Virus record (IMG/VR): IMGVR_UViG_3300003690_003472
Location: 64,001-128,000 of that record
DNA length: 64,000 bases
Direction: 5' to 3' (one strand)
DNA from: a virus
How positions within the stretch are numbered: position 1 is the stretch's first letter; each line of letters begins with the position of its first letter. Positions 14,946-60,420 of the stretch are shown here, in pieces. Both the position numbers and the translations under genes were made by a program. Below the pieces are notes generated by a model that worked only from the letters and a program-made list of their open reading frames with translations, did not search any database and had not been told where the DNA came from.

Positions 14946-15494
14946 ATGATATTAGGATTAGATGTTTCAACCAGCATTACTGGTTATGCAGTGTTAGATT
15001 ATGAAGGAAAAATTATACGTTGCGGTGCATGGGATATGCGCAATAAAAACAGATTCAAAGATCATTTTGAAAAGGCGGTTTTTATCAAAGATGAGATATG
15101 CTTGATGAAAGCTCAGTTGCCGATTCAAAATATACATATTGAACAACCTTTTACTTTTTTTAATTCAGGTGGCTCTTCCGCAACAACAATGGCTTCCCTT
15201 CAAAAATTTAATGGTATAGTTTCATGGATTTGCTATGATATTTTTAATATTATACCACAATATTTAACCGCAGGAGAAGCAAGAAAAGCTTGTGGAATAA
15301 GAATCTTAAGAGGGCAAAAAGCAAAAAAAGTTGTTATACGATGGCTACTTAAGGAAGAGCCTGATTTTAAAGTAGAATACACTTCTCAAGGAAATCCAAA
15401 GCCAAAATATTATGACATGGCAGATTCGTTAATAATTGCCAAGGCCGCTCACCGCCTACTTGGTGAGATAAAAACAAAAGAAGGAAATTCTTGA
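14946..15494 (+). CDS. RuvC-like Holliday junction resolvase
   Basis: MILGLDVSTSITGYAV (catalytic D), HIEQP (catalytic E) and C-terminal DMADSLIIA, matching the RNase H-fold RuvC pattern. Confidence 0.8.
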   Translation: MILGLDVSTSITGYAVLDYEGKIIRCGAWDMRNKNRFKDHFEKAVFIKDEICLMKAQLPIQNIHIEQPFTFFNSGGSSATTMASLQKFNGIVSWICYDIFNIIPQYLTAGEARKACGIRILRGQKAKKVVIRWLLKEEPDFKVEYTSQGNPKPKYYDMADSLIIAKAAHRLLGEIKTKEGNS

Positions 15495-15519
15495 TTTTTT
15501 ATTTTTCTTATGTTATGAT
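15491..15519 (+). promoter_or_regulatory. Sigma70-type promoter with extended -10 (primase)
   Basis: TTGATT(15491)-17 nt-TATGAT(15514), preceded by TATGn. The ATG begins 7 nt after the -10 box ends. Confidence 0.65.
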
Positions 15520-15525
15520 ACGTAT

Positions 15526-16455
15526 ATGAATTCTGAAAAGATTCAAATTCTCAGAGAAATATTGGGAGACTATTATAAGTCAAACGATGAATATTTATTC
15601 TTTTGTTCTTTTTGTGGGCACCACAAAAGAAAAATGTCAGTAAACATATCCAAAAATACATACAAATGTTGGATATGTGACAGTAGGGGTCGGAATTTAT
15701 ATTATCTTGTAAAGAGGTTTGGCAATTATCATCATCGTCAAGTGTGGAGAAGTTTTGAAGAAACTGTCGACATGTCAGATTTTGATAATATATTTGAGAA
15801 AAAAGAAGAAGAAGTAACACAACGAGTTAGACTTCCAAATGAATTTGTTTGTCTTGCAAATACAAACTTACCTTTTACAGCAAAAGCTCCTTTAAAATAT
15901 CTTAAAAAACGCAAAGTTACTGAGTATGATATATTAAAATGGAAGATAGGATATTGTGATGATGGAGAATATAGAAACAGAATTATTATACCCTCTTTTA
16001 GTTTGGATGGATATTGTGATTATTTTATCGCTAGAACTCATACAAAGGATTGGTTAAAATATAAGAACCCACCGGTATCTAAAAATATTGTTTTTAATGA
16101 ATTGATGATTAATTGGAACGAACCAATTACTTTAGTTGAGGGTGTATTCGATGCAATTAATGCTGAAAATTCGGTGCCACTACTAGGCTCAACACTGAGC
16201 ACTCACTCTAAGCTCTTTAAAGCTATTCTGACGCACTCTAGGCGAATATATGTAGCCCTCGACCAAGACGCCGAGAAAAAGGCTTTAAGCATCATTAACG
16301 CGCTTATTTCGCACGGTGTCGAAGTTTACAAAATTAATACATCTGATTATGAAGATGTTGGAGAAATGACAAAAGAACAGTTTAAAGAGAAAAAACAGGA
16401 AGCTTCTTTAATTGATTCAAGTTCATTATTAATTCAAAAAATATTACAAATTTAA
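15526..16455 (+). CDS. DnaG-type DNA primase (zinc ribbon + TOPRIM)
   Basis: CSFCGH...CWIC zinc-binding domain, YRNRIIIP, TOPRIM LVEGVFDA and ALDQDAE. Confidence 0.9.
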   Translation: MNSEKIQILREILGDYYKSNDEYLFFCSFCGHHKRKMSVNISKNTYKCWICDSRGRNLYYLVKRFGNYHHRQVWRSFEETVDMSDFDNIFEKKEEEVTQRVRLPNEFVCLANTNLPFTAKAPLKYLKKRKVTEYDILKWKIGYCDDGEYRNRIIIPSFSLDGYCDYFIARTHTKDWLKYKNPPVSKNIVFNELMINWNEPITLVEGVFDAINAENSVPLLGSTLSTHSKLFKAILTHSRRIYVALDQDAEKKALSIINALISHGVEVYKINTSDYEDVGEMTKEQFKEKKQEASLIDSSSLLIQKILQI

Positions 16456-17624: not shown

Positions 17625-17653
17625 TTGACACTTTAAAACAAGTGTGATAACGT
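17625..17653 (+). promoter_or_regulatory. Sigma70-type promoter with extended -10 (SbcCD fusion)
   Basis: TTGACA(17625)-17 nt-TAACGT(17648), preceded by TGTGn. The ATG is at 17661. Confidence 0.7.
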
Positions 17654-17660
17654 ATATTCA

Positions 17661-20600
17661 ATGAAGTTTGCTCATATCGCTGATACCCATATCAAAAATC
17701 TTAAATATCATCATGAATATCGAATTGTTTTCGATAAATTATATGAAAAGCTAAAAGAAGAAAAGGTTGATTATATAATTCATTGCGGTGACATGGCACA
17801 TACTAAGACTCAAATATCACCAGAGTTTGTAGAAATGTGCACTAATTTTTTAAGGAACTTAGCAAATATCGCACCTACGTATGTAATATTGGGGAATCAT
17901 GATGGGAATCTCAAAAACTCCAGTAGACAAGATGCATTAACGCCAATTGTTGATGCACTAGAACATAAAGATCTTCATTTATTGAAGAACTCGGGGGAGG
18001 TGTGTCTAAATGGTGGGTTTACTATTAACGTATTGTCTGTATTTGATCGCGATAATTGGGCCAATATTTCTGATACCAATCGGATTAATATTGCACTTTA
18101 TCACGGGTCTATATCGAATAGCGAAACTGATCTTGGATGGGTTATGGAACATGGGGAAGATGATGTATCAATTTTCAAAGGATACGATTTTGCTTTCTTG
18201 GGGGACATTCATAAAACCAACCAAGTTTTAGATAAAAAAAAGAAAATTAGATACGCAGGTTCAACCGTACAACAAAATCATGGCGAAACTAACGATAAAG
18301 GTTTTTTGATTTGGGATATAAAAGATAAAGATAGCTTTACTTGTAAGCATATTACATTAGAAAATCCTAAACCTTTTATTACAATAGAACTAACTCCCAA
18401 AGGAAGGTTACCCAACAAAATTAAAGTTCCTTCTGGTGCAAGATTGCGATTAGTTTCTAATAACAACTTGCCTCTAGATACAATGAAAAAAGCAGTTGAA
18501 ATTGCTAAACATCGTTTTAAGCCTGAAAGTATTACATTTTTAAATCGCGCCGCTGGTCAACGAGGAAACATAGAAGAATTTGCTGATGGATTAGTCGCTG
18601 ATAATCTTAGAGATCCAGTTATACAAGAAGAACTAATCAGAGAATATTTAAAAGATTTCCAACCAGAAGAAGATTTATTTAAACGTGTTCTAAGGCTTAA
18701 TTCTAAATATAATATAGCGGCTGAAGACCAAGAAGAAGTGGGAAGAAATGTTAATTGGAAATTAGAATCGTTAGAATGGGATAATTTATTTAATTATGGA
18801 AGTGGGAATCGGATCAGCTTTAGCAAGCTTCACGGAATCGTTGGGATATTCGGAAAGAATTTTAGTGGTAAATCTAGCATTATTGACAGCATGCTTTATA
18901 CTCTTTTTAATTCCACTAGTAAAAATGAGAGGAAAAATTTCAACATTATTAACCAAAATAAAAACCATGGTATGGGAAAGGTTGAAATTTCAATAGGAAA
19001 TAAAAAATATATAGTTCAAAGAAGTTCTGAAAAATATATTAAAAAACTTAAAGGCGAAGAAACACTAGAGGCAAAAACTGATTTAAATTTTGAATGTTAT
19101 GATAAGGTCACCAGAGAAACTCAAAGTCTTAATGGATTGACAAGAAATGAAACCGACAGAATTATAAGAAAACACTTTGGAACACTAGAAGATTTTCTTC
19201 TAACTTCAATGTCTTCGCAACTCGGCGCACTTCAATTTATTAGCGAGGGATCAACAAGACGAAAAGAAATTCTTGCAAAATTTCTTGATCTTGAGATGTT
19301 TGAGAAGAAGTATAAAATGGCAAAAGAAGATGCATCAGACTTTAGGGGCGCTTTAAAGCGTTTAGAGGGAAAAGAGTTTGATGATGATATCTTCACAGCT
19401 GAAAAAGATATCATTTTTAATGAGGCACAAACGCGCACCCACTCTGAAAGTTGTGAAATTATTAAAGAAAACTTAGTAGAACTTCAACAAAAAATAGATG
19501 AGATTCAAAAATCTATTGATTCCATCCCAACCGAAATTATTGATATTGAAAAAATCACTAGCCAATATAGTGAAAAAGAAAAACAGGCTGCGCATATTAT
19601 TGCTGACATTATTAATCTACAAGACAAACAAGTAGAAAAGGAAGACCTTCTCAAGAAAATTGATGAATTTGTCGATACTTTTAATATAGAAGAGTTACAC
19701 GAAAAGAAAAATTTAACCACAGAAAAAATTGCTTTAATAAATAAAATTAGTGATGAACTGTGCGCAATAGAAAACAGTCTAATAGTAAAGGAAAAAAAGA
19801 AACAACTTTTAGAAGAAGTGCCATGTGGAGATAAATATCCTAATTGCAAATTCATTTGTGATGCGCACAGTGCAGCAAACGAATTGTTTGATTTAACAAA
19901 AGAAGTAAAGAGTCTAAATGAAACTGCAGATAAAATTAATAAAGAAATAGAAACATTAGATCCAGAATACAAAATTGATGAACATTTAGAAAAATACAAT
20001 CAACTGCTTTACAAAAAGAAAGATATTGATAATGAAATTTCTACCACAAAGATTTTAATTGAAAAAAATGAAATTGCTTTAAAGTCTGTAGAAAAAGAAG
20101 CTATAGAGCTAGAGCAGCAGAAAAATATATATTATGATAACAAAGACATTATTGAAAATAAAGGATCGTTTATTAAGGAGCTAGCAAAAGAAAAGATACT
20201 TTATTTAGAAAAAGAAGAAGAATTAAAAGAATGTTTAGATGCTTTAATGGAGCTTTATAAAGAACACGGCTCTTTAGAGCAAAAACTAACTTCGCTTCAA
20301 GAACAAAAACAAGAACTAGCAGATCTTCGTGAAGATTATGCCGCATATGATTTATTTATGCAATGTATGCATAGCAATGGTATTTCATATGATATTATTA
20401 AAAGGAAGCTTCCAGTAATCAATAATGAAATTGCAAAGGTATTAGCCAATGTAGTTAATTTTGAGGTTTTTTTTGAAAACGATGGAAGACATTTAAGAAT
20501 TCTTATTAAACATCCAAGCCACGAACCAAGACCAATCGAAATGGGAAGTGGGGCAGAAAAAACAATTGCTGCAATGGCAATTCGTTTAGCGCTTTTGTCT

Positions 20601-20819
20601 GTTTCTAGTTTGCCAAAGTCCAATATTTTTATCCTTGACGAACCCGGCGCAGCGCTTGATGCCGATAATATGGATGGGTTTGTCCGTATTCTAGAATTAG
20701 TAAAATCTTATTTTAAAACTGTGTTTTTAATTTCACACCTCGATTCTCTTAAAGACTGCGTAGATATGCAAATTACAATTGATAAAAAAGACATGTACGC
20801 TTTTGTTAAAGAATTCTAA
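17661..20819 (+). CDS. Fused Mre11/SbcD nuclease and Rad50/SbcC ATPase (gp47-gp46-like)
   Basis: Phosphoesterase motifs ADTH, HCGD, GNHD, YHG and GDIH. Walker A GKNFSGKSS, coiled coil with Cys cluster PCGDKYPNCKFIC, signature GSGAE, Walker B FILDEPGAALD and H-loop ISH, all in one ORF. Confidence 0.92.
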   Translation: MKFAHIADTHIKNLKYHHEYRIVFDKLYEKLKEEKVDYIIHCGDMAHTKTQISPEFVEMCTNFLRNLANIAPTYVILGNHDGNLKNSSRQDALTPIVDALEHKDLHLLKNSGEVCLNGGFTINVLSVFDRDNWANISDTNRINIALYHGSISNSETDLGWVMEHGEDDVSIFKGYDFAFLGDIHKTNQVLDKKKKIRYAGSTVQQNHGETNDKGFLIWDIKDKDSFTCKHITLENPKPFITIELTPKGRLPNKIKVPSGARLRLVSNNNLPLDTMKKAVEIAKHRFKPESITFLNRAAGQRGNIEEFADGLVADNLRDPVIQEELIREYLKDFQPEEDLFKRVLRLNSKYNIAAEDQEEVGRNVNWKLESLEWDNLFNYGSGNRISFSKLHGIVGIFGKNFSGKSSIIDSMLYTLFNSTSKNERKNFNIINQNKNHGMGKVEISIGNKKYIVQRSSEKYIKKLKGEETLEAKTDLNFECYDKVTRETQSLNGLTRNETDRIIRKHFGTLEDFLLTSMSSQLGALQFISEGSTRRKEILAKFLDLEMFEKKYKMAKEDASDFRGALKRLEGKEFDDDIFTAEKDIIFNEAQTRTHSESCEIIKENLVELQQKIDEIQKSIDSIPTEIIDIEKITSQYSEKEKQAAHIIADIINLQDKQVEKEDLLKKIDEFVDTFNIEELHEKKNLTTEKIALINKISDELCAIENSLIVKEKKKQLLEEVPCGDKYPNCKFICDAHSAANELFDLTKEVKSLNETADKINKEIETLDPEYKIDEHLEKYNQLLYKKKDIDNEISTTKILIEKNEIALKSVEKEAIELEQQKNIYYDNKDIIENKGSFIKELAKEKILYLEKEEELKECLDALMELYKEHGSLEQKLTSLQEQKQELADLREDYAAYDLFMQCMHSNGISYDIIKRKLPVINNEIAKVLANVVNFEVFFENDGRHLRILIKHPSHEPRPIEMGSGAEKTIAAMAIRLALLSVSSLPKSNIFILDEPGAALDADNMDGFVRILELVKSYFKTVFLISHLDSLKDCVDMQITIDKKDMYAFVKEF

Positions 20820-30566: not shown

Positions 30567-31371
30567 AAAAAGAAACACTGCTTTTCTTTATGAGGCTTTA
30601 GTGCGTGAGGCTGTCAAAAAATCTTTGAACAAAGAAGTAAAAAAACGTAATAAAATTATTTCAGTTTTAAAAGAATCTTTTGCACATAATACCTTTCTGG
30701 GAAAAGAGTTGATGCTTTTTAAAATTCTTTTGGAAACAAAGGGGCTATCTACTAGATCCGCCGACAAACTTATTGAAAAAGTTAAAAAAGAATATTTAAA
30801 GCTTAATACAAAAGAGATTTTTAATGAACAAAGTGCTTTAATTAAAAAAATAAATAAACAAATATCAAAAAATGTTTTTTCTAATTTTGTTCCAAACTAT
30901 AAAGATTTAGCAACCATATCTCAGATACTTAACGCAGATAGCGGTGTAAGAAATTGTATAATTTTAGAAGAAAATTTGTTAAATAAAATTACACAAAAGA
31001 CCAACTTTAAAGAAAAAAATAAAAAAAGCAAAATATCAAACCTTGTTGTAAATGGGTTTATTAAAAAATTTAATGATAAATATAGTACGAGCCTTCAAGA
31101 AAATCAAAAAGTACTTCTTAGTAAATTTATATTATCATTCATGGATAATGGTGTTGATTTTAAGGTATTTTTAAACGAAGAAATTGAATATTTGAAAAAA
31201 ACAATAAGAAATTCATATGATCTAGAAGAGCTTAAAAAAGACGACAACATGATGATTAAAATGAAAAAAGTTTTAAGCCTATTGGAAAACGCCAATACAA
31301 AACCAGTTGATAATGAATTTTTGCAACAGTTATTAAAAATACAATCTTTAGCAAAGGAGATTGAAGTCTGA
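30550..31371 (+). CDS. Hypothetical head-module protein (possible prohead core component)
   Basis: Lies between portal and protease. Helical and Lys/Glu-rich. Confidence 0.55.
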   Translation: MPKYNKKRNTAFLYEALVREAVKKSLNKEVKKRNKIISVLKESFAHNTFLGKELMLFKILLETKGLSTRSADKLIEKVKKEYLKLNTKEIFNEQSALIKKINKQISKNVFSNFVPNYKDLATISQILNADSGVRNCIILEENLLNKITQKTNFKEKNKKSKISNLVVNGFIKKFNDKYSTSLQENQKVLLSKFILSFMDNGVDFKVFLNEEIEYLKKTIRNSYDLEELKKDDNMMIKMKKVLSLLENANTKPVDNEFLQQLLKIQSLAKEIEV

Positions 31372-31961
31372 TGGTAGATTTTAATGTAAAGGTCGAGGGC
31401 CCGAAGGTTGCCCCTCTTGCGCCAGCAACCAGTTTTAAAGTTAAGATTGATAATCCCATCGATGCAAGAATAAGACTGAAGGCAAGAAAAACATTAGATG
31501 GGAATATATTGGTTTTTGACCATCCAGAAATTGATATTGTATTGTCTCCTAAAAATAAAAAAGTTTTAGCTCTTTCAAAAGATGAATATGGCGATCACGT
31601 ATATGCAACTCAATCTAGACTTTTTGAATATTTAATAAAAAATGGAGTTATAGAAGGCTCCTCAATTCGAGGAGGCAATATTTATGGCTCACTGGAGGGT
31701 ACCATTTTAGAAAGCTTTGAGCCTGATAGAGTAGATTCACTACAGGTGGTTTTATATTCAGTAGCCTCCTTTTTGATCGAAGAAAAACCTCATTATCAAG
31801 CAGTCAAGCGATATGAAATTGAATTTGAGAAAGAGCTACTTGAACCAGACGACAAAGACTCTACCGAACTTGGCGAAATACCACACGATAAACGAAAAGG
31901 CACTGTTGGTCATTACAGTGGTATGGGTACTTATGGTCTTTTCGGTTATAGTGGTTACTAA
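31371..31961 (+). CDS. Hypothetical head-module protein
   Basis: TGATG coupling to the upstream gene. No domain recognised. Confidence 0.55.
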   Translation: MVDFNVKVEGPKVAPLAPATSFKVKIDNPIDARIRLKARKTLDGNILVFDHPEIDIVLSPKNKKVLALSKDEYGDHVYATQSRLFEYLIKNGVIEGSSIRGGNIYGSLEGTILESFEPDRVDSLQVVLYSVASFLIEEKPHYQAVKRYEIEFEKELLEPDDKDSTELGEIPHDKRKGTVGHYSGMGTYGLFGYSGY

Positions 31962-31970
31962 GAGGCTTAG

Positions 31971-32300
31971 ATGGATTTAATATACTTTATATTAACAGCA
32001 TACGGCCTTACTCAAATATTAATTTTTGGTTCAATATTTAATAATATTCGCCCTTCAAGAAATTGGATGTGTGGATTTGGAAAATTATTTCATTGCCCCA
32101 TGTGTATGGGCTTTTGGGTAGGCATCTTTTTATTCGGAATTAACAAATACACTGAACTATTTACATATGACTATAATATAGCCAATGCGTTTATATTGGG
32201 TTGTTTGGCTTCTGGGTCAAGCTATTTATTAAGCGTTTTGATTAATGACTATGGGCTTAAAATAACTTATAAAGACGAAGGAGATTGTCATGTTAATTAA
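31971..32300 (+). CDS. Membrane protein, DUF1360-like
   Basis: Hydrophobic helices and the CPMCMGFWVG motif. Confidence 0.6.
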   Translation: MDLIYFILTAYGLTQILIFGSIFNNIRPSRNWMCGFGKLFHCPMCMGFWVGIFLFGINKYTELFTYDYNIANAFILGCLASGSSYLLSVLINDYGLKITYKDEGDCHVN

Positions 32301-32370
32301 AAAGTGGAAATTGCAACCGGTACGTCGTTGCTGCAGTGGCTCCAGTATCGCGCGGCTGACGGCCGCTTGA
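32290..32370 (+). CDS. Candidate 26-aa small ORF MLIKKWKLQPVRRCCSGSSIARLTAA
   Basis: SD AAGGAG at 32278 and ATG at 32290. It fills the gap before the protease gene and is absent from the ORF track. Confidence 0.5.
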   Translation: MLIKKWKLQPVRRCCSGSSIARLTAA

Positions 32371-32380
32371 GGTGGTAAAA

Positions 32381-33022
32381 ATGTCTAAAGTGCTTTTACG
32401 AGAATTTTTTGAATTAAAATGTGATGAACGTGGATGTCAAGATTTACTAACCGAAGGTGAAAAAAGATTAGTTACTGAAGGATTTTGTATTTTTCCTGCG
32501 AAACTACAGCAATGCGATGTACAGAATGGTAATGGTAGAATATATGAAAGAAGCCTTTTAGAAAGAGAAATAGATAACTATGCAAAGTTAGTTGAAGAAG
32601 GCCGCGCCATTGGTGAATGTGACCACCCAGACGATAGCGTAATTAATCTTAGAAACGCATCCCACAAAGTTATTAGAATTTGGTGGGATGGCGATGATGT
32701 TGTCGGCACAATACAGTGTTTAAAAACACCTTCAGGTGAAATCTTAAAAGGTCTTTATGATAGTGGTGTTAAATTTGGGTTTTCTTCTAGAGCGCTTGGT
32801 TCGTTGCGACCTTGCTCAGAGGGTACAGGCGCTCAAGTAGTTCAAGAAGATCTTCAATTAATTTGTTTTGATGCTGTTTCAGAACCTTCTGCTCCTAACG
32901 CCTATATTCTAAATCAACCCGGAGGAGCAATCAACATGAATGAAAATGCAGAAAAAAACTTAACAAAAATATTTACAAAAGGCGATAGGATTAATCGTGC
33001 TATAAATAGTATTTTAAGGTAA
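32381..33022 (+). CDS. Prohead core protease (T4 gp21-like)
   Basis: NGNGRIY, GECDHP, ASHKV, GFSSRALGSL (catalytic S) and FDAVSEPSAPNA. Start set at ATG 32381 from SD GAGGT. Confidence 0.93.
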   Translation: MSKVLLREFFELKCDERGCQDLLTEGEKRLVTEGFCIFPAKLQQCDVQNGNGRIYERSLLEREIDNYAKLVEEGRAIGECDHPDDSVINLRNASHKVIRIWWDGDDVVGTIQCLKTPSGEILKGLYDSGVKFGFSSRALGSLRPCSEGTGAQVVQEDLQLICFDAVSEPSAPNAYILNQPGGAINMNENAEKNLTKIFTKGDRINRAINSILR

Positions 33023-33025
33023 AAG

Positions 33026-33466
33026 ATGAAAAAAACAGATTTAAAAAAAATATTAAAACCTCTGGTAAAACAATGTGTTAAAGAGGTTTTATTAGAAGAG
33101 GGTGTTTTATCTAGTGTTGTCTCTGAGGTAGTTGTTGGCCTTTCCCCGCTGTTGGTTGAAAACAAAAACAACAGCATGAAACCAACAAATGAAATTTCCT
33201 TAAAGCAGCAAAAGCTTTTGGAACAACAAAGACAAGAACTTGAAGAAGAAAAGACGCAGACAATTAAAGAACAAAAAATAAAAATTTTAAATGCTACCGG
33301 ATTTGGAAGTGAAGTGTTCGATGGCGTAGAACCTTTAGCTTTTGCCGGAACACCAGACAGCAACCCTCCCACGAGCGCGTTAGCGGGAACTGCCCCTAGC
33401 GATGCAGGTATAGACATATCTGGTATTATAGCTTTGGGTGGCAATAGATGGAATAAATTAGTTTAA
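33026..33466 (+). CDS. Hypothetical protein with an MKK..LK.ILK..VKE.LLEE leader
   Basis: Follows the protease and precedes bS21. Central coiled coil. Confidence 0.6.
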   Translation: MKKTDLKKILKPLVKQCVKEVLLEEGVLSSVVSEVVVGLSPLLVENKNNSMKPTNEISLKQQKLLEQQRQELEEEKTQTIKEQKIKILNATGFGSEVFDGVEPLAFAGTPDSNPPTSALAGTAPSDAGIDISGIIALGGNRWNKLV

Positions 33467-33480
33467 GGAAAATAATTAAA

Positions 33481-33708
33481 ATGTCAAAAAGGCCCATTAA
33501 TGTAGAAGTAAGACCACGAGATAAAAATGAAAATATAGAACGTATGATTCGCCGTTTTACAAAAAAAGTTAAAAAAGAGCGCATTATTGAAAACTTTAGA
33601 GAGCGTATGTATTATGAAAAGGAATCCGACAAAAGAAAAAGATTAAAAGCACGACGCAAAAAAGTGTTAGATAAATTAAGGATCGAGAGAGAAAATAGAT
33701 TAAAATAA
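33481..33708 (+). CDS. rpsU: Phage-encoded ribosomal protein bS21
   Basis: VEVRPRDKNENIERMIRRFTKKVKKERIIENFRERMYYEKESDKRKR matches the bS21 pattern V.V...E..E..LRRFK......R.R.YYEKPS..RK. Confidence 0.88.
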   Translation: MSKRPINVEVRPRDKNENIERMIRRFTKKVKKERIIENFRERMYYEKESDKRKRLKARRKKVLDKLRIERENRLK

Positions 33709-33715
33709 CTATTTA
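33708..33715 (+). promoter_or_regulatory. Putative late promoter motif ACTATTTA
   Basis: Followed by SD AAGGAG (33722) and ATG 33735. Confidence 0.6.
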
Positions 33716-33734
33716 ATTAAAAAGGAGAATTAAA

Positions 33735-34148
33735 ATGGTATTCAACCCAGGACATGGTGTCGGATTAAGAAATGTAGGATCATATCAGATTTCTGGGCAC
33801 CCTTATATTACAGGCTCTTTATTGGCCACCGGCGAAGAAAAAGCAGTTATATTTCCACAGGTAACAAGAGAATTTACAGTAATCAACTCTGGAAGCACTG
33901 GCGGGGCAGGCCCAGTATTAAGAATACATTTTAATTCCACTTCATCTGGTGATGTGTATGCTGGGCATCACTATATTACACTAGAAAGCGACGATCAATC
34001 AATAACCTTCCACACTAAATGTAAAGAGCTTTATATTAGTTGTGTTGGTAATGGCGGCGGCGACAGTGGGTTTGAAGTACTTGCAAACTTAACCAACATT
34101 GGCGACAGTCATATGTATGAATTAACAGGTGCTGGCCTAACCGACTAG
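33735..34148 (+). CDS. Small virion structural protein (Ser/Gly/Thr-rich)
   Basis: Strong SD, beta-type composition and head-module location. Confidence 0.55.
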   Translation: MVFNPGHGVGLRNVGSYQISGHPYITGSLLATGEEKAVIFPQVTREFTVINSGSTGGAGPVLRIHFNSTSSGDVYAGHHYITLESDDQSITFHTKCKELYISCVGNGGGDSGFEVLANLTNIGDSHMYELTGAGLTD

Positions 34149-34163
34149 AGGAAAACAAACACT

Positions 34164-40353: not shown

Positions 40354-42159
40354 ATGTCAGTACTTCAAAAATTAACAGAAGGGATTGTTAATCGCGATCT
40401 CAAGAAAGAAGGCGCGGCACTACTTAACAAGTGGGGCAAAACGGGCCTTTTAGAGGGTTTGGGAGGAGAGCAACACAAGCAAAATATGGCTTGCTTGCTT
40501 GAAAATCAAGCCAAAGAGCTTCTTCGCGAAGCTTCAGCCATGTCTCAAGGTGACGTGGAAGGGTTTGCCGCTGTTGCATTCCCAATTGTCCGTCGTGTAT
40601 TCGGTGGACTTATTGCTAACGATCTTGTTAGTGTTCAGCCAATGAGTCTCCCTTCGGGACTCATTTTCTTTATGGACTTTCAGTTCAATGGTGAACGTTT
40701 AGCAGAAGTTGCTAATGCATCATTGTACGGAGGCGGCGTAGTTGGTCAACAGCTTACTGGTGGTGTCGACTTAACTGGTGCAAATCTAGAAAAGAGTTTT
40801 TATAGCTTAAATAATGGTTATTCATCTCCAACTGGTTCTGAAGTTGCATCCGTTATCTCGGTTTGCAGCGGCACTTATCCCCCGGAAAACGTGTGGACAG
40901 GCACCGGCGGTGCTGCTGACCTCTTCGATACTAATTTAATCAATGAACTTCTTGAATTTGATACTGCATTTGTTTCAGGTACGTCCACTGTTGCTATTGG
41001 AACCTTAAACATTACAGGTACCGTCTCGGGGCTTAGCTCCTTGAACAGAGACGATTTAATTGCTGTTGTTGTTTCTGCATCTACTGGTGGACCTTCATCA
41101 TATAATGCTAATTCACTTCAAATTCGTCGTTTGACTAAATATTCTGGTTCAGATGGTTCAGGTAATTATCGAAATGATCGAGCTAGCAACACACTGTATG
41201 TTGTCGGCGCATCATTAGCTGGTGCGACTACTGCAAACGATCTCAGACTGGCTATGCTTCATGGTAGCAATAATACCTATTCATTCCCACAGGCTGATAG
41301 TTTTGCTGGATCTGCCGCGGCAGGTAATGCAAATGCACTTGGTTCTGTTGTCGGTACAAGTCCTTGGGGCTTGGAAAATGACGCAGGAATTCCTGAAATT
41401 GATCTCAAGGTAGATTCAGTGTCCGTCACTGCAGTTACCAAAAAGCTCAAAGCAAAATGGACTCCTGAACTTGGTCAGGATCTGAATGCTTATCATAATT
41501 TGGATGCCGAGGTTGAACTTACATCAATTCTTTCGGAGCAGATTGCTCTGGAGATTGATCGAGAGATCATGACAGACCTCATTAAAGGCGCCACGGCTGA
41601 TACTTTGTATTGGGCACGTTCCCCTGGTCTCTTCGTAAACCGTACAACCGGTGCCGAAGTAGGGGCTAGTGCTAAAGCTCCCGACTTTACGGGTACTGTT
41701 TCTGAGTGGTATGAAACACTTATTGAAACAGTTAATGATGTTTCTGCACAGATTCATCGTAAGACGCTTCGAGGTGGTGCAAACTTCCTTGTCACGTCTC
41801 CTGAAGTTGCTAATATCCTTGAGTTCACGGCTGGTTTCCGCGCAAGCGTTACTGCCGATGATAACAAGGGTGTCGCAGGCGCATCAAAGGTTGGCGCTCT
41901 TAGTAAGAAATTCGATATATATGTCGATCCTTACTTCCCGCGCAATCTTATACTTGTTGGTCGTAAGGGCAATAGCTTCCTTGAAAGTGGCTATGTATAT
42001 GCCCCTTATGTGCCGCTACAAGTTACGCCTACCATTTTTGGTACAGAAGATTTTGTACCTCGTAAGGGTGTCATGACCCGTTACGCTAAGAAAATGGTCC
42101 GTCCCGATATGTACGGTTTAGTTATCGTTCGAGGACTTCTTGGCGAAAGTGGTACTTGA
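40354..42159 (+). CDS. Major capsid protein (T4 gp23-like) with a large insertion
   Basis: PIVRRVF..LIANDLVSVQPMSLPSGLIFF, KKLKAKWTPELGQDLNAYHNLDAEVELTSILSEQIALEIDREI, YAPYVPL and GVMTRYA. SD TAAGGAGG. Confidence 0.96.
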   Translation: MSVLQKLTEGIVNRDLKKEGAALLNKWGKTGLLEGLGGEQHKQNMACLLENQAKELLREASAMSQGDVEGFAAVAFPIVRRVFGGLIANDLVSVQPMSLPSGLIFFMDFQFNGERLAEVANASLYGGGVVGQQLTGGVDLTGANLEKSFYSLNNGYSSPTGSEVASVISVCSGTYPPENVWTGTGGAADLFDTNLINELLEFDTAFVSGTSTVAIGTLNITGTVSGLSSLNRDDLIAVVVSASTGGPSSYNANSLQIRRLTKYSGSDGSGNYRNDRASNTLYVVGASLAGATTANDLRLAMLHGSNNTYSFPQADSFAGSAAAGNANALGSVVGTSPWGLENDAGIPEIDLKVDSVSVTAVTKKLKAKWTPELGQDLNAYHNLDAEVELTSILSEQIALEIDREIMTDLIKGATADTLYWARSPGLFVNRTTGAEVGASAKAPDFTGTVSEWYETLIETVNDVSAQIHRKTLRGGANFLVTSPEVANILEFTAGFRASVTADDNKGVAGASKVGALSKKFDIYVDPYFPRNLILVGRKGNSFLESGYVYAPYVPLQVTPTIFGTEDFVPRKGVMTRYAKKMVRPDMYGLVIVRGLLGESGT

Positions 42160-42285: not shown

Positions 42286-42293
42286 ACTATTTA
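42286..42293 (+). promoter_or_regulatory. Putative late promoter motif ACTATTTA
   Basis: Downstream of the MCP terminator, followed by AAGGAGGT and ATG 42312. Confidence 0.62.
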
Positions 42294-42311
42294 ATTAAAA
42301 GGAGGTTTATC

Positions 42312-42479
42312 ATGGGAAAAAAATGGAAAAAACTTTGGTTAATAAAAAAGAATGCAGCCAAACAAGCAGTAGTTGAAGAGGACACAACCAAGCCAACAAC
42401 TGCATCGAAACCTGAAAAAACACAAGTTAAAACTAAAAAACAGTGGTTTACAAGCAGCACGAAGAAATCTAATAAATAA
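42312..42479 (+). CDS. Small Lys-rich protein (55 aa)
   Basis: Perfect SD AAGGAGGT. Begins MGKKWKKLWLIKK. Start corrected from 42249. Confidence 0.65.
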   Translation: MGKKWKKLWLIKKNAAKQAVVEEDTTKPTTASKPEKTQVKTKKQWFTSSTKKSNK

Positions 42480-42504: not shown

Positions 42505-42512
42505 ACTATTTA
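42505..42512 (+). promoter_or_regulatory. Putative late promoter motif ACTATTTA
   Basis: Followed by GAGGAGG and ATG 42534. Confidence 0.62.
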
Positions 42513-42533
42513 TAGGTGAGGAGGCTTAAATGA

Positions 42534-43832
42534 ATGGCTGTACCCACTTTATCACCAGTATCACAAGTCAGTGCAGTTACTCTTCCTTCCGGCAGTGTTC
42601 CCAGCGCCGTTGAAGATAGTACGAGTCTTCCACTTGGACTTTATTCAAACACATCATCTGACAGATTTTCTCAATATTTTTGTTCTGGAGCCGCAGATCA
42701 AGTTGCTTATACTTATAAAAAATTAGGGGGTGATGTATTAGACATTGAACTAACTAACGGGAGCATATTTGCAGCTTATGAAGAGTCCGTATTAGAATAT
42801 TCTTATATCCTAAACATTCATCAAGCCAAAAATGCACTTTCTGACGTTTTGGGAGCCACCACTGGTACATTTGATCACGAAGGACAACTTCAAAGCTCTG
42901 ATTCATTAGCGGGTAAAAATATAAATCTTAAATATCCTCGTTTTGAGTTTTCATATGCACGCCGGGTAGGATTTGGTGTTTCAACCGAAATTGGTTTCGG
43001 AGGAGAGGTAACAATATATTCTGCATCTTTCACTGGATCCGCTGGCCGACAAGATTTTGACTTACAACAAATTCTTTCTTCTTCTGCTAATTCCGATAGT
43101 AGTTTATCATATTATGGAAAAATAGATGGCAAAAGAATTAATATAACTAAAGTCTATTACAAAACCCCTTCTTCTATGTGGAGATTTTATGGATATTATG
43201 GAGGTTTAAATACGGTTGGTAATTTAGCCAGCTACGGCCAGTGGGCCGACGATACAACGTGGGAGTTAATACCAGCTTGGCAAAATAAAGCACAAGCCAT
43301 GGCGTTTGAAGATGCAATATATACTAGGAATTCTCATTATTCATATGAAATTAAAAATAATCGAATAAGAATATATCCAGATATGACAACATCGGGCCCA
43401 ACTCAATATTGGATAGATTTTTTCGTAGATCCAGATCCATGGGATGCTGGAGACACAGACGGTAGAGGCGGCGGCGCAGGTGTAGAAGGTGTTAATAATT
43501 TAAACACAATTCCTTTTGAAAATCTTCCATATGATAACATTAATGCCATTGGAAAACAATGGATTCGAAGGTTTGCACTTGCTTTATCTAAAGAAACACT
43601 TGGCAATATTCGTAGTAAGTTTACTACTATTCCAATTCCAGGAGAATCTGTTACTCTAAATGGTCCTGCACTTTTATCGCAAGCACAAGCAGAACAAGAA
43701 AAACTTAAAGAAAACCTTAAAACAATATTGGACGAATTAACTTATTCAAAATTAATGATAGAAGATGCCACCATGATGGATGCTGTTAATAATATTCAAA
43801 AAAGAATCCCGCTAAAGGTCTTCGTGGGGTAA
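42534..43832 (+). CDS. Neck/head-tail adaptor protein (gp13-like)
   Basis: LGGDVLDIELT, WIRRFALALSKETLGNIRSKFTTIPIPGESVTLNGPALL, and its position after the MCP. Confidence 0.8.
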   Translation: MAVPTLSPVSQVSAVTLPSGSVPSAVEDSTSLPLGLYSNTSSDRFSQYFCSGAADQVAYTYKKLGGDVLDIELTNGSIFAAYEESVLEYSYILNIHQAKNALSDVLGATTGTFDHEGQLQSSDSLAGKNINLKYPRFEFSYARRVGFGVSTEIGFGGEVTIYSASFTGSAGRQDFDLQQILSSSANSDSSLSYYGKIDGKRINITKVYYKTPSSMWRFYGYYGGLNTVGNLASYGQWADDTTWELIPAWQNKAQAMAFEDAIYTRNSHYSYEIKNNRIRIYPDMTTSGPTQYWIDFFVDPDPWDAGDTDGRGGGAGVEGVNNLNTIPFENLPYDNINAIGKQWIRRFALALSKETLGNIRSKFTTIPIPGESVTLNGPALLSQAQAEQEKLKENLKTILDELTYSKLMIEDATMMDAVNNIQKRIPLKVFVG

Positions 43833-45276: not shown

Positions 45277-45284
45277 ACTATTTA
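45277..45284 (+). promoter_or_regulatory. Putative late promoter motif ACTATTTA
   Basis: Upstream of SD AAGGAG and the sheath ATG at 45322. Confidence 0.6.
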
Positions 45285-45321
45285 TTACAGAAATAGAACC
45301 GCCTTTAAAGGAGAAACATAG

Positions 45322-48300
45322 ATGTCTTACAAAAAATTTAAATTCATATCACCAGGAATTTTCATTAACGAGATTGACAATTCACAAGTACCTGCCCTAC
45401 CATCAGCAATGGGACCGGCAGTTATTGGTAGATTTGAAAAAGGCCCCGCTTTAAAACCGATTTCAGTTAATTCATTTTCAGAATTCATTGACATATTTGG
45501 CAATCCATCTCCTGGTGGCCAAGGCGGCGATGTTTTTCGTTATGGAAATTTTACTTCTCCCACTTATGCTGCTTACGCAGTCCAAGCTTGGTTCAGAAAT
45601 AACGCTCCCGTAACAGTCGTACGATTGTTGGGACAAACACATTCAGATGCAACACAATATGCAGGATTTGCTGGCTGGTCGACAGAGGCATCTGTAGCGG
45701 CAACGACTAATATGAGCACCAATAACGGTGCATATGGTCTTTTCATTTGTGAGGGCACCGGCTCGACCGGACCTGTGATCGTCGCTGATGCCGAAGGCAC
45801 ATTTGGCGGTTCTGGGGCGCTGACTGGTACCTTAGCGGCTGTGTGGTATTTAACACAAGGTGCAATTGCGCTTACTGGCGCTGTTGCCAACACCGCCAGC
45901 GCTGAAGAATATACAGCTTCATTATCACAATTTTTTAAAGCAGCAGATTCCGGCCCATCATTTAAAGTGACTATTCTTAGCGGCTCTACTACTTCAGTTG
46001 CTACATCTACTGCATTTACTTTCGATCCGGATTCTCCCAAGTTTATTAGAAAGGTTTTTAATACGAATCCTATTTTAACAAACTCAAGCATGGTGCCAAC
46101 TGGAGATACTGTTCAGACTTATTGGCTGGGTGAAACATATGAAGGTTGGGTTAGAAATGCTTTTGAACACGCTGGCTCTATTGGTATTAGTGGAAGCAAT
46201 GTGAATTCTTGCTTTGGAGTTATGATGAGATTATCAACTCCCAATGGCAGCACCGATCATGGTGACTTTAGAATGAGTACCACTAAAAGTCCAAGTAAAC
46301 AATTTGCAAAAACTGGCTGGTTTATTTCTCAAGACATGTCTAGTAATACTGCAAGTTACAGTCCTGAAAGTATGCAAAAACTATTCCGTTTCGCGTCGCG
46401 CGAATTGGGAGAAGACACACAACGCAAGATTAAAATTTCAATTCAAGATATTAAACCTAGTCAAGATACAGAGAATCCATATGGTTCTTTCAGTGTGGTT
46501 ATCAGGAATATAAAAGACACAGACGATGACCCACAGATACTTGAACAATATAATAATTGCAATATAAATCCTGCATCCGATAATTATGTAGCCAAAAAGA
46601 TTGGAAACAAATATGAACGATGGGACGATCTAGATCGTAGATATAGGGCATATGGTGATTATGTAAATATTTCTGATTATATTTATGCAGAAGTAAATGA
46701 ATCTGTGGATCGCGGTAATACTACTGCAGAATATCTTCCTTTTGGTGTTTATGGTCCTCCTCGCTATGTTGGCTTTGCAGTATCAGGAACACAATTAGCG
46801 ACATATGATGACATAACCAGCAAACCATCCGGCGATGCAGATGCCTTTGTCGCATCCGGAAGTACTAGTCCATTGGGATTGATACATGGCCACGTTGGAA
46901 GTTTCTTTTCGTCATCTGTTGACGGTGTAATTGTCAATTCAAAATTTAAGTTTCCTGCACTAAGGATGCGTAAAAGTTCATCTGAAGGTGCACTAACAGA
47001 TTCTAGAGATGCTTATTTTGGTGTTGATACAACCTACAGTACAGACGGTTCAAGATTTGACGTTAGTACGTGGGATGTCTTGCGCACTAGATGTGAAGAT
47101 CTCAATAGCTGGGTAGCAACATCTGGGAAGACTGAAACTTCATTTATCTTTTCTTTAGATGATGTGCACAACGCTAACATTACAAGTTCAGTTGATGCAG
47201 ATTCTTATAGTACTCAGGCTGTTTATCAGTCCGGATCTCGCGAGGCGGGATATTCTTATACTGCGCATACTGCATCTGCAAATGCCACCACCCCTGGCCC
47301 GGGAACCGTATCTTATCTAAATGTAATTAGTGATGAATCTCAAGATGGTGGCACCACGGCAGGTTGGAATCGATTTACTACTTGTCTACATGGTGGTACC
47401 GATGGAGTGAATATTAAAGAAAGTGATTATTTTAATAATAGTGATCTTGAAGGTGTTACAGGCGCTGGGCCCAAAGGTTGGAATAGTGCAGCATATAACT
47501 CAATTGAGGTTGCAGTAGATTCACTCCGAGACCCAGAAGTTGTTGAATATAATATACTTACAATGCCTGGATTAACGGATAACACACTTAACAGAAAAAT
47601 AGTAGATATGTGTTCTCTACGCGGCGATGCTTTGGCAATTATCGACCTTAAGAACGGCTATCAGCCAGAACATGAAAGCAGCGGAGATCGTATCTCTCGC
47701 AAGGGAGATCTCAAAGCGGTTGTAAACAATAAAAAATACACCCTCAAACTTAATAGTAGTTATGGTTGTGCTTATTATCCATGGGTACAAATTCGTGATA
47801 CCATTAATGGCGCAACACTTTGGGCACCCCCTTCGATTGTTGCTTTGGGCGCAATGTCATACGGAGAAGCGAATTCACAGCTTTGGTTCGCGCCTGCAGG
47901 CTTTACGCGCGGCGGTTTAAGCGCTAATCAAGCAGGTGGAATTCCCGTTGTCGGCGTAGAAGAAAGATTGACAGTTAAACAGCGAGACAGGCTTTATGAT
48001 GCTCAAATTAATCCAATTGCTTCATTCCCAGCAGAAGGTATTGTAATCTTTGGTCAAAAGACTTTACAAGTATCTGCTTCTGCTCTCGATAGAATTAATG
48101 TTCGGCGTTTAGTAATTTTCTTGAAAAAGCAAATTTCAAGATTCGCTGCTACAATACTTTTTGATCAGAATGTTGCTGTAACGTGGGCTCGATTTAAATC
48201 TAAGGTTGAGCCATTCTTGTTAAGCGTTAAATCTGGTTTGGGTATTACTGAATATAGAGTTATCTTGGATGAAACCACGACGACTCCTGATCTTATTGAT

Positions 48301-48405
48301 AGAAACATTTTGTATGCGAAGATTTATGTTAAACCAGCAAGAGCAATTGAATATATTGCTATTGATTTCATAATTACAGATTCGGGTGCTTCTTTTGAGG
48401 ATTAA
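45322..48405 (+). CDS. Contractile tail sheath protein (gp18-like) with large insertions
   Basis: FISPGIFINEID at the N-terminus, plus YYPWV, WFAPAGFTRG, LYDAQINPI, GQKTL, LDRINVRRL and IEYIAIDF. Confidence 0.95.
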   Translation: MSYKKFKFISPGIFINEIDNSQVPALPSAMGPAVIGRFEKGPALKPISVNSFSEFIDIFGNPSPGGQGGDVFRYGNFTSPTYAAYAVQAWFRNNAPVTVVRLLGQTHSDATQYAGFAGWSTEASVAATTNMSTNNGAYGLFICEGTGSTGPVIVADAEGTFGGSGALTGTLAAVWYLTQGAIALTGAVANTASAEEYTASLSQFFKAADSGPSFKVTILSGSTTSVATSTAFTFDPDSPKFIRKVFNTNPILTNSSMVPTGDTVQTYWLGETYEGWVRNAFEHAGSIGISGSNVNSCFGVMMRLSTPNGSTDHGDFRMSTTKSPSKQFAKTGWFISQDMSSNTASYSPESMQKLFRFASRELGEDTQRKIKISIQDIKPSQDTENPYGSFSVVIRNIKDTDDDPQILEQYNNCNINPASDNYVAKKIGNKYERWDDLDRRYRAYGDYVNISDYIYAEVNESVDRGNTTAEYLPFGVYGPPRYVGFAVSGTQLATYDDITSKPSGDADAFVASGSTSPLGLIHGHVGSFFSSSVDGVIVNSKFKFPALRMRKSSSEGALTDSRDAYFGVDTTYSTDGSRFDVSTWDVLRTRCEDLNSWVATSGKTETSFIFSLDDVHNANITSSVDADSYSTQAVYQSGSREAGYSYTAHTASANATTPGPGTVSYLNVISDESQDGGTTAGWNRFTTCLHGGTDGVNIKESDYFNNSDLEGVTGAGPKGWNSAAYNSIEVAVDSLRDPEVVEYNILTMPGLTDNTLNRKIVDMCSLRGDALAIIDLKNGYQPEHESSGDRISRKGDLKAVVNNKKYTLKLNSSYGCAYYPWVQIRDTINGATLWAPPSIVALGAMSYGEANSQLWFAPAGFTRGGLSANQAGGIPVVGVEERLTVKQRDRLYDAQINPIASFPAEGIVIFGQKTLQVSASALDRINVRRLVIFLKKQISRFAATILFDQNVAVTWARFKSKVEPFLLSVKSGLGITEYRVILDETTTTPDLIDRNILYAKIYVKPARAIEYIAIDFIITDSGASFED

Positions 48406-48419
48406 AAATATAATTTAGC

Positions 48420-48427
48420 TCTATTTA
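48420..48427 (+). promoter_or_regulatory. Putative late promoter variant TCTATTTA
   Basis: Upstream of SD AAGGGAG and the tube ATG at 48453. Confidence 0.55.
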
Positions 48428-48452
48428 CTTAATAGAAAGGGAGAAAAAAGAA

Positions 48453-49055
48453 ATGGGAGAATTTTGGAGTTCAAAAAAGATAGACCCTAAGCGAAGTTTT
48501 CGCTGGGCATTATATTTGACAAATCTGGATCCATATATTATTAAAACAGTTGCGAAACCAAGTTTCACAATTAATAATATTACTCACAACTATGCGGCTC
48601 ATACATTTAATTATCCGGGTAGAATAACATGGAATCCTGTATCCGTTACTCTAGTAGATCCTGTTGATCCAGACGCTTCCTCTAAATTAGTTAAAATCTT
48701 ACAAGCTTCCGGCTATGCTATACCTGTAATAGATAAAGCTGCACAAATTTCATTTACCAAAGATCAAGCCAATGTGGTGATTGGTTCTCCAACAATCGCT
48801 CAACTTGATGCATCTGGTAAGACGATTGAAGAGTGGGTTCTTAAAAATGCTTGGATTGAAAGCGTTAATTTTGGTAGCTTAAGTTACGAATCTGATGAAA
48901 TGGTAAATATCGAACTTTCTTTCCGTTATGATTGGGCTGAATATCACGGTGGCGACAAAGGCGTTGTTAAGCCTGTATTAACCCCCCAGAACGAAAGCGC
49001 TGGACAGCACATTGCAGACTTAAGGACCGAACTTGGTCAAGTTGCTGGTGAATAG
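48453..49055 (+). CDS. Tail tube protein (gp19-like)
   Basis: KRSFRW, KTVAKPSF, FNYPGRITWNPVSVTLVDP and EEWVLKNAWIESVNFGSLSYESDE..IELSFRYDWA. Confidence 0.88.
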   Translation: MGEFWSSKKIDPKRSFRWALYLTNLDPYIIKTVAKPSFTINNITHNYAAHTFNYPGRITWNPVSVTLVDPVDPDASSKLVKILQASGYAIPVIDKAAQISFTKDQANVVIGSPTIAQLDASGKTIEEWVLKNAWIESVNFGSLSYESDEMVNIELSFRYDWAEYHGGDKGVVKPVLTPQNESAGQHIADLRTELGQVAGE

Positions 49056-59188: not shown

Positions 59189-59194
59189 ATACAT

Positions 59195-59222
59195 TTTACT
59201 AGCGCTGTATACAGTATATTAT
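59195..59222 (+). promoter_or_regulatory. Possible sigma70-type promoter (polA)
   Basis: TTTACT(59195)-16 nt-TATTAT(59217). ATG at 59230 with no SD. Weaker match than the other four promoters. Confidence 0.4.
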
Positions 59223-59229
59223 ATTTAAA

Positions 59230-60420
59230 ATGATTTTTCAAACGTTTGATGATAAAAAAAATTGTTATGCCATTTATGCAAATAATAAGATTTACTCAAA
59301 AGGCGCACCCTCACGACTGAACCTAACATCGACTTGGGATTATTCTGAATTTCTGAGAGACAAGGATATTTTATATGCAAAATATTATTGTGGTGGAAAG
59401 CCCCTTTCAGAAATATGCCCAGAACATCTTAAGGGAGAGTGGAAAAGTGTTTTTAATAAATTAAAAGCCTTTTATAGATCTATTAACGAGACAAAATTAA
59501 ATTTAAGTGAGCATTGTTTTTATGATATGCTTCCTTCTTATATCTTGTTAGAGTATGGAAAGATTAAAAACAAAATTTGTTCTTATATATTTGAAAATTA
59601 TGAAAAACCATTAGATTATAAATTTAAAGTTGAGCTGACAAAAGTTTTAACTGAAATGAAGAATAAAAAGTTGAATATTGATCTCTTGGCTATGAAAAGT
59701 CGTCGGCATGAGTTTAAAGTTCGTCAGTTCATTAAGAAAATAAAAGAAACACCACCTTTTGTTGTTTATGATGCATGCGGCACAAAAACAGGAAGATTGA
59801 CATCAAAGAAGTTTCCCATATTAACTATGGACAAAAGTTTTCGAAAAATATTAAAACCGAACAATAGCTGGTTTTTAGAACTTGACTATAATGCAGCAGA
59901 ACTTCGTGTGTTGCTTGGCTTATTGGACACAGAACAACCAAAAGAAGATATACATACTTGGAATCTACAAAATGTTTATAAAGGAATTGGAACAAGAGAA
60001 AAAGCTAAAAAAAGAATATTTGCATGGCTATATAATCCCAAATCAAAAGATTACATTTCTAGTCGAGTATATAATCGAGAAGAACTTTTAGAAAAGTATT
60101 GGGATGGCGAATATGTAAAAACATACTTTAATAGAGAAATCAAAGCAGACGAAAAACATGCCTTGAATTATATTGTACAATCAACTGCTGCAGATTTGTT
60201 TTTGCGCCAAATGATCAAAGTGTGGGAATATTTAAAAGATAAAAAATCTTACATTGCTTTTTGCTTGCATGATTCTTTGGTGATTGATTTGCACACAGAA
60301 GACGAGATGCAAATAAATGACATAAAAGAAATTTTTGAAGATACTGAACTAGGTAAATTTAAAGTTAATTCGTATGGTGGAAAAAACTTTAAGGATATGA
60401 AGAGGTTAAACGTAAAATAG
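59230..60420 (+). CDS. Compact family A DNA polymerase (no evident exonuclease domain)
   Basis: TKTGRLTS, motif A LDYNAAELRV, motif B REKAKKRIFAWLY, ALNYIVQSTAADL and motif C LHDSLVID. Confidence 0.88.
   Translation: MIFQTFDDKKNCYAIYANNKIYSKGAPSRLNLTSTWDYSEFLRDKDILYAKYYCGGKPLSEICPEHLKGEWKSVFNKLKAFYRSINETKLNLSEHCFYDMLPSYILLEYGKIKNKICSYIFENYEKPLDYKFKVELTKVLTEMKNKKLNIDLLAMKSRRHEFKVRQFIKKIKETPPFVVYDACGTKTGRLTSKKFPILTMDKSFRKILKPNNSWFLELDYNAAELRVLLGLLDTEQPKEDIHTWNLQNVYKGIGTREKAKKRIFAWLYNPKSKDYISSRVYNREELLEKYWDGEYVKTYFNREIKADEKHALNYIVQSTAADLFLRQMIKVWEYLKDKKSYIAFCLHDSLVIDLHTEDEMQINDIKEIFEDTELGKFKVNSYGGKNFKDMKRLNVK

Follow-up and report, generated by a model that had tools for sequence, protein, structure and literature searches.

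Ribosomal protein bS21 in the head operon of a large marine T4-type phage and its relation to leaderless and Shine-Dalgarno-led genes

Why does a T4-type phage keep a gene for ribosomal protein bS21 among its head genes? To our knowledge, no other viral ribosomal protein is as widespread as bS21, and we know of nobody who has shown the function of the phage form. A sequence-only reading of the locus described here offered one answer, namely that bS21 acts as a switch: leaderless early mRNAs need no bS21, and the phage bS21 made late in infection shifts the 30S subunit to late mRNAs led by a Shine-Dalgarno (SD) site, within a coupled transcription-translation programme. Here we examine the bS21 gene, its neighbours, and the promoters and SD sites of this phage and its relatives.

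The stretch of DNA analysed (the window, 64,000 nt) comprises bases 64001-128000 of a 185,564-bp IMG/VR virus record with 36% GC, an estimated completeness of 84% and nearly all of its genes on the + strand. The virus is a large uncultured marine T4-type phage, encoding TerL, a gp20-type portal, a prohead protease, a gp23-type major capsid protein (MCP), neck, sheath, tube and baseplate hub. By portal, its closest cultured phages are the Flavobacterium phage vB_FspM_immuto (43.7% identity) and the Microcystis phage Mel-JY01 (41.5%), whereas portal identity to classical T4-likes is only ~28-30%. Gene calls are longest-ORF calls made in the present analysis, and transcription starts and gene timing are predictions throughout. 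The starts of small genes past window position 88000 are uncertain, which lowers the SD scores there.

Cellular genome contigs were scanned with the bS21 homologues to find the host, and no close cellular relative was found among them. The only matches to the bS21 clade in genome contigs were seven short MAG contigs (L046-L052) of inconsistent taxonomy, labelled as Oligoflexia, Acidiferrobacteraceae, a Methanobacteriota archaeon, Maricaulis, Legionellales and others. These contigs are most likely mis-binned phage DNA.

The bS21 gene and the head operon

The locus is made up of the following genes, with the MCP gene further downstream.

32372..33022, + strand: prohead maturation protease (phrog_207, 2.7e-45, PHROGs); its true start is likely the ATG at 32381, after GAGGTGG
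33026..33466, + strand: 146-aa coiled-coil protein, placed by synteny between protease and bS21
33481..33708, + strand: phage bS21 (rpsU-like) gene, 75 aa, assigned by Pfam/TIGRFAM, predicted fold and synteny
33735..34148, + strand: conserved virion-module gene of 137 aa, downstream of bS21
40354..42159, + strand: gp23-type MCP (PF07068 at 1e-72), with the SD AAAGGAGG (energy -10.0)

The small, extremely basic product of ORF 33481-33708 matched PF01165 (Ribosomal_S21) with an E-value of 1.2e-12 (47.8 bits; cut-off 27) and TIGR00030 with an E-value of 4.8e-11 (42.3 bits; cut-off 28.95). Its AlphaFold (AF2) model has a pLDDT of 84 and helices at residues 19-32, 35-43 and 48-74. When this model was compared with the PDB by Foldseek, the top 17 hits were exclusively bS21, bS21m or bS21c chains, with weak E-values (at least 0.075), as is usual for a helical protein of 75 aa. 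Judged by these family and fold matches, the ORF encodes a true and conserved bS21. The protein shares the helix layout, RRF...K and YEK with cellular bS21 (the E. coli-type 71-aa protein, PDB 10fz_U and 3j9z_SU; 7jil_z), and differs from it in a clade-conserved N-terminal extension of seven residues (MSKRPIN) and in a Glu in place of the helix-capping Pro. A profile of the phage bS21 clade aligned near full-length with the solved chains, scoring best with the long proteobacterial forms (E 7e-11 to 1e-9), and 7jil_z of F. johnsoniae was the weakest bacterial chain (E 1e-5). By sequence, the bS21 of this clade resembles the proteobacterial and not the Bacteroidia type.

We found 145 homologues, and R25, F26, K29, K31, Y45 and K47 are invariant in the 29 that were aligned. 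The sequence-only reading had singled out YYEKES, where the usual family motif is YEKPS, and a C-terminal helix without aromatic residues. Both traits are present: RRF, K29, K31 and YYEK are kept, and no F, Y, W or H follows Tyr45. As a residue signature, however, they did not hold up. Position 48 is Glu here, Gly in the 93%-identical P0001 and Pro in the other 27 of the 29, and the aligned homologues show an aromatic-free C-terminal helix to be normal in the clade, where most members, like the phage bS21 itself, have no aromatic to match Tyr54 of F. johnsoniae. In a comparison with a homologue of 67% protein identity, dN came to 0.30 with saturation at synonymous sites; dN/dS therefore allows a qualitative statement only: bS21 appears to be under purifying selection. 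In four related contigs (L008-L011) bS21 stops about six codons earlier, and the length of the C-terminal tail is therefore variable within the clade.

The claim that bS21 lies in the head operon is borne out by its neighbours, which are TerL (at 26985), the portal (at 28578; both by PHROGs), the prohead protease, the MCP, neck, sheath and tube. The gap from the protease to the 146-aa ORF is 3 nt and that from the 146-aa ORF to bS21 is 14 nt. Family searches with the 146-aa protein gave no match; by its position it is scaffold-like. In the region 31300-34300, sigma70-like sites are no commoner than in shuffled sequence, and no terminator-like site was found on the way from the protease gene to the bS21 stop. 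Lacking a promoter or terminator of its own, bS21 should be made together with the head proteins, and from its position, with late motifs on both flanks, we infer that it is expressed late. Just before the SD and start of the protease gene, at 32340-32371, lies a G+C-rich imperfect hairpin, GCGCGGCTGACGGCCGC, in a genome that is otherwise A+T-rich. Downstream of the 137-aa gene, an 861-aa fibre-like protein (34164-36749) has two long internal repeats, in which the block GGGGSPGGSDTQIQYNNGGSFGGISA.TWDDTNI occurs twice.

Of 20 large marine relatives, 18 have a PF01165 match, among them every one of the ten that are at least 90% complete, and the order protease, 146-aa ORF, bS21 is kept in four of the related genomes (G006, G013, G019 and G015). 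In the cultured, 190-kb Mel-JY01 (PP395634), which by its portal belongs to the same wider lineage, the locus is built as in the present phage: the protease is followed by an ORF of ~150 aa (154 aa) and by a 75-aa bS21, annotated RpsU, upstream of a gp23-type MCP. This bS21 is 34% identical to that of the present phage and retains the Pro (IKPS). bS21 is a long-fixed core gene of the head-morphogenesis operon in this large lineage of T4-type myoviruses. A tblastn search with bS21 against cultured phages gave no match although Mel-JY01 has the gene (low-complexity filter or short query). In immuto, bS21 (PF01165) was not found; the 75-aa ORF after its protease, taken as a candidate, is not bS21 and was rejected.

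Comparable loci have been described. In freshwater myoviruses, bS21 lies amid TerL, portal, prohead protease and MCP; its late expression was inferred from context, and substitution for host bS21 was proposed (Chen et al. 2022, ISME Commun 2:31, PMC9723584). Those phages were assigned to Bacteroidetes, and their bS21 is most Flavobacteriia-like and keeps Tyr54 or another aromatic (PMC9723584), whereas the present phage has a proteobacterial-like bS21 without the aromatic, as well as SD sites and canonical sigma70 promoters. bS21 is also core in the pelagimyophages, a marine T4-type group (PMC7029224). According to Mizuno et al. 2019, as relayed in PMC7029224, the Pelagibacter myophage HTVC008M and the pelagimyophages are bS21-bearing marine T4-types, like the present phage, in which bS21 is by comparison fixed in the head operon and the portal is closest to those of immuto and Mel-JY01. 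What is new here is a bS21 fixed in the head operon of a very large marine T4-type lineage, and in the same place in a Microcystis phage.

Promoter classes and predicted leaderless genes

Upstream regions fall into two groups, host-type extended -10 promoters and a CTATTTA late motif. The two promoter classes of the sequence-only reading are present, and we find them to be TTGACA-17-TGnTAnnnT (early) and CTATTTA(W) (late). The early form is typically cTTGACA-17-TGaGATAAT. Upstream of the genes of the present phage, TTGACA-N16-18-TAnnnT shows a 6-fold enrichment; immuto lacks the pattern, and Mel-JY01 has no such promoter type. The Bacteroidetes -7 motif TAnnTTTG is not enriched here, nor in the Flavobacterium phage control. 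The late motif, (A)CTATTTA(A/T), occurs 41 times on the + strand versus 14 times on the - strand. Some 17 of the CTATTTA copies are no more than 40 nt away from a start codon; the neck, sheath and tube genes and the gene after bS21 are among the genes so preceded, and a strong SD is nearly always present between motif and start. The T4 late consensus TATAAATA was rejected as the late motif, being not enriched (7 on the + versus 17 on the - strand), and CTATTTA(W) was adopted. The sites nearest to the head and tail genes are as follows.

32222..32228, + strand: late-type CTATTTA ahead of the protease gene, with a second copy at 32157
33001..33008, + strand: TATAAATA box, the late-promoter consensus of T4, 17 nt ahead of the 146-aa gene
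33709..33727, + strand: CTATTTA (33709-33715) and SD AAGGAG (33722-33727), directly after the bS21 stop and before the 137-aa gene
42506..43832, + strand: CTATTTA at 42506, SD GAGGAGG and the neck/adaptor gene (42534-43832)
45278..48405, + strand: CTATTTA at 45278, SD AAGGAG and the tail sheath gene (45322-48405)
48421..49055, + strand: CTATTTA at 48421, SD GGGAG and the tail tube gene (48453-49055)

The CTATTTA and AAGGAG that follow the bS21 stop are predicted to drive the 137-aa gene. It is possible that the TATAAATA box starts a late message for the 146-aa protein and bS21, an assignment that is tentative because TATAAATA is not enriched genome-wide. CTATTTA/TATTTATA is 2- to 10-fold enriched upstream of genes in all seven lineage genomes compared (G000, G006, G013, G019, G015, MW353176 and PP395634, a set that includes immuto and Mel-JY01), most weakly in Mel-JY01, which suggests a shared late sigma specificity unlike the TATAAATA of T4. 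Within 42287-42400, a small ORF that begins near 42315 is also preceded by CTATTTA and by AAGGAGGT; the longest-ORF call, with a TTG at 42249, misses it.

We then looked for strong host-type promoters lying 60 nt or less from a called start. The spacing between their -10 hexamer and the start codon is bimodal, with five genes at 6-7 nt, none at 8-13 nt and 13 at 14-39 nt. A strong promoter at 6-7 nt was found at 5 of 209 gene starts versus none of 3385 internal ATGs (Fisher p = 6e-7). The five genes, predicted to be leaderless, encode the primase (15526), SbcD-SbcC (17661), a dCMP deaminase (genome position 128222), a DUF2201 metallopeptidase/VWA protein (genome position 160487) and a 75-aa ORF (genome position 165231). 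Each begins with ATG and lacks an SD, the SD energies being -3.1 to +0.6 kcal/mol. The cases within the window, together with a weaker sixth one, are listed below.

15491..15528, + strand: early-type promoter TTGATT-17-TGtTATGAT, 6 nt from the primase ATG, predicted leaderless
15526..16455, + strand: DnaG-type primase, with weak Zn_ribbon_DnaG and DNAG_N Pfam matches, both under the curated cut-offs
17625..17663, + strand: promoter TTGACA-17-TGaTAACGT, 7 nt from the SbcCD ATG, predicted leaderless
17661..20819, + strand: fused SbcD-SbcC (Mre11-Rad50-like) nuclease/ATPase, 1052 aa (Metallophos 5e-14; AAA_23, SMC_N)
59195..59232, + strand: weaker promoter-like TTTACT-16-TATTAT, 7 nt from the PolA-C ATG (score 3, no TG extension)
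59230..60420, + strand: C-terminal part of a family-A DNA polymerase, PolA-C (PF00476 at 3.3e-16)

Three early enzymes had been put forward as leaderless. For the primase and SbcCD, the promoter geometry and the lack of an SD stood, with the starts being predicted ones; the third enzyme, probably PolA-C, is a weaker case, likewise without an SD. In the SbcCD gene, the SbcD (Mre11-like phosphoesterase) and SbcC (Rad50-like ATPase) parts form a single ORF, and the N-terminal 400 residues have relatives in more than 590 viral contigs. Within the region 57791-60420, the family-A polymerase domain is confined to the 396-aa ORF at 59230-60420. The preceding 465-aa ORF has no family match and lies behind a late-type CTATTTA; together, the two ORFs may be a split polymerase.

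The geometry is conserved for some of these genes. Many relatives of the primase were found, and its 6-nt gap is kept in ~14 of them (52-77% protein identity) with differing spacer and discriminator sequences; the DUF2201 gene keeps the leaderless geometry in 15 relatives. For SbcCD, it is common to only 1 of 79 relatives (L156) and is for that reason not treated as a lineage feature. Among the promoter-proximal genes of three complete relatives, those at 5-8 nt number 2 of 15, 4 of 16 and 3 of 16, and the identical scan found the leaderless geometry in 0 of 25 such genes of T4 and 0 of 14 of Syn9. The four bS21-bearing lineage genomes thus have 13-25% versus zero (Fisher p = 0.0009), which compares one clade with two bS21-free outgroups. 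Elsewhere, phiKZ has no leaderless transcripts and the UTRs of AR9 are at least 26 nt long. As a prediction from promoter geometry, the leaderless early class appears real. We regard this conserved class, which the lineage has and T4 and Syn9 lack, as new and as the more original part of the case.

Shine-Dalgarno sites in early and late genes

The sequence-only reading had quoted strong SD sites before late genes, and all of them are present: AAGGAG before 33735, 45322 and 11628, AAAGGAGG before 36767 and 40354, AAGGAGGT before the small ORF near 42315 and GAGGAGG before 42534. It had also set these late sites against leaderless early genes, a split that broke down on the early side. The 20 genes just downstream of a sigma70/early-type promoter include the five leaderless ones and 13 with leaders of 14-39 nt. 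In 11 of these 13, the SD has an energy of -6 to -10.7 kcal/mol (mean ~-8), equal to the strength of late genes; examples are the GGAGG and AAGGAGG sites before window positions 65651, 68195, 86997 and 88917. A 16-gene early array likewise has GAGG sites.

An SD of -6 kcal/mol or stronger precedes 54% of the genes in the structural region versus 34-45% elsewhere (p = 0.03; internal-ATG background 10%). This enrichment, proposed to be tied to bS21, is modest, and T4, in which PF01165 has no match, is biased in a similar way (33% on the late strand versus 22% on the early strand). Within the head module, SDs are strong for the MCP, neck, sheath and tube and weak for TerL, the portal and bS21 itself, whose AAGGA has a spacing of 11 nt and an energy of -4.0. 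SD strength is best read as following the amount or copy number of the protein needed, independent of bS21.

A comparison of genomes gave the same picture. SD-bearing genes make up 5% in immuto (below its own background), 15% in Mel-JY01 and 32-49% in the marine relatives. SD use follows the host type and not bS21. There is no close relative that lacks bS21. In the comparison of SD sites and leaders between genomes with and without bS21, T4 came out on both sides: it shares the SD bias, which speaks against the switch, and lacks the leaderless class, which speaks for it. Primase, SbcCD, PolA-C and DUF2201 genes are SD-led in several bS21-bearing relatives, some of them behind the very promoter that is used leaderless here. 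Leaderlessness therefore varies while bS21 stays constant, and the link of bS21 to a leaderless/SD split is weak.

In Mel-JY01 (PP395634), SD sites reach 31-50%, ~40%, in the structural bins at 20-40 kb and 160-190 kb versus ~10% elsewhere. This concentration resembles the proposed split; it is equally expected if virion proteins are selected to be highly expressed. Mel-JY01 differs from the present phage in its cyanobacterial host, in the confinement of its SD sites to structural bins and in the lack of TTGACA-type early promoters. Judging by the sites in the phage genome, the host of the present phage seems to make use of SD sites and of canonical sigma70 promoters. With sigma70 promoters, SD-led genes ahead of the late phase and a bS21 of proteobacterial type, the ribosomes of this host should need no unmasking.

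Possible roles of phage bS21

We propose a model, to which we lean without holding it secure, in which phage bS21 enters the host 30S and sustains or biases initiation on late phage mRNAs. A functional phage bS21 would be made together with the head proteins and would join the host 30S platform beside the anti-SD. There it would supplement or replace the loosely bound host bS21 once host expression has collapsed and the demand for virion proteins peaks. Initiation on late phage mRNAs would thereby be kept efficient, or initiation would be biased towards these mRNAs. The leaderless subset behind host-type promoters would be what the unmodified transcription and translation machinery of the host accepts.

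Three other explanations have to be weighed against this model. The switch from leaderless to SD-led translation would fit a genome in which a leaderless class and late leaders with strong SDs coexist, the occurrence of leaderless geometry in all four bS21-bearing genomes and in neither T4 nor Syn9, and the near-confinement of SD sites to structural bins in the bS21-bearing Mel-JY01. It would also fit the finding that 61S or S21-poor ribosomes, which lack other proteins too, translate leaderless mRNAs (PMC3653068, PMC4929434). However, 13 of the 20 early promoter-proximal genes are leadered, 11 of them with an SD of late strength, and the early array adds its GAGG sites; if the host can read the SD sites of early genes, its ribosomes are SD-capable from the outset. 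The structural enrichment is matched by the bS21-free T4, the candidate leaderless genes are SD-led in relatives that carry bS21, the Pro-to-Glu change is near-private, and an aromatic-free helix is usual both in the clade and in bS21 from outside the Bacteroidia. No comparison that we ran gave the switch support, and we consider it unlikely. A version in which the conserved leaderless set is early or middle, and late bS21 tips the 30S toward the short SD leaders of CTATTTA promoters, strikes us as improbable too; if it were true, a virus-encoded ribosomal protein would be a temporal translation switch.

A second explanation holds that the phage bS21, having no masking Tyr, replaces the host bS21 in an SD-blind host of Bacteroidia type. 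In F. johnsoniae, the aromatic Tyr54 of bS21 stacks on A1534 and the anti-SD is sequestered (Jha et al. 2021), so that the masking itself is established (PMC7797042, PMC9976891); the Flavobacterium phage immuto is among the nearest cultured phages by portal, and the C-terminal helix of the phage bS21 is free of aromatics. Against it, TTGACA-N17-TAnnnT is enriched in this genome and absent from immuto, early genes, which are made before any late bS21, carry strong SDs, and immuto has neither bS21 nor SD sites. The clade profile, moreover, scored best with long proteobacterial bS21 (~1e-10) and worst, among bacterial chains, with 7jil_z. We judge this explanation to be very improbable here, and since the lineage uses SD sites and canonical promoters, Bacteroidia anti-SD masking cannot be the general explanation of phage bS21. 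Finally, bS21 might be packaged into the virion and either be delivered to act on ribosomes as infection begins or serve to condense DNA as an internal head protein. In every relative examined, the gene comes directly behind those for the protease and the scaffold-like protein; this place and the extreme basicity of bS21 fit a packaged or injected protein, and Chen et al. raise the possibility of encapsidation (PMC9723584). The ribosome-binding core (RRF...K, YEK) is nevertheless strongly conserved, which a mere polycation would not need, and we give a virion role little credence.

For the preferred model, in which phage bS21 acts on the host 30S, Mel-JY01 and Microcystis form a cultured system that allows a direct test of bS21 function and of leaderless initiation.

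The lambda cI mRNA transcribed from PRM is leaderless. The early genes described here are like mRNAs of the lambda cI type in that the predicted 5' end lies at the AUG and no SD is present. They are unlike it in forming a conserved class, about a quarter of the genes behind host-type promoters, which is defined by promoter geometry only. The primase (L060-L102) and the DUF2201 gene (L197-L276), leaderless with a 6-nt gap in the sub-clade of the present phage, have in distant relatives a leader of ~20 nt with GGAGG behind the same TTGACA/-10 promoter. One gene with one promoter is thus leaderless or SD-led depending on the relative, and leader design toggles in evolution.
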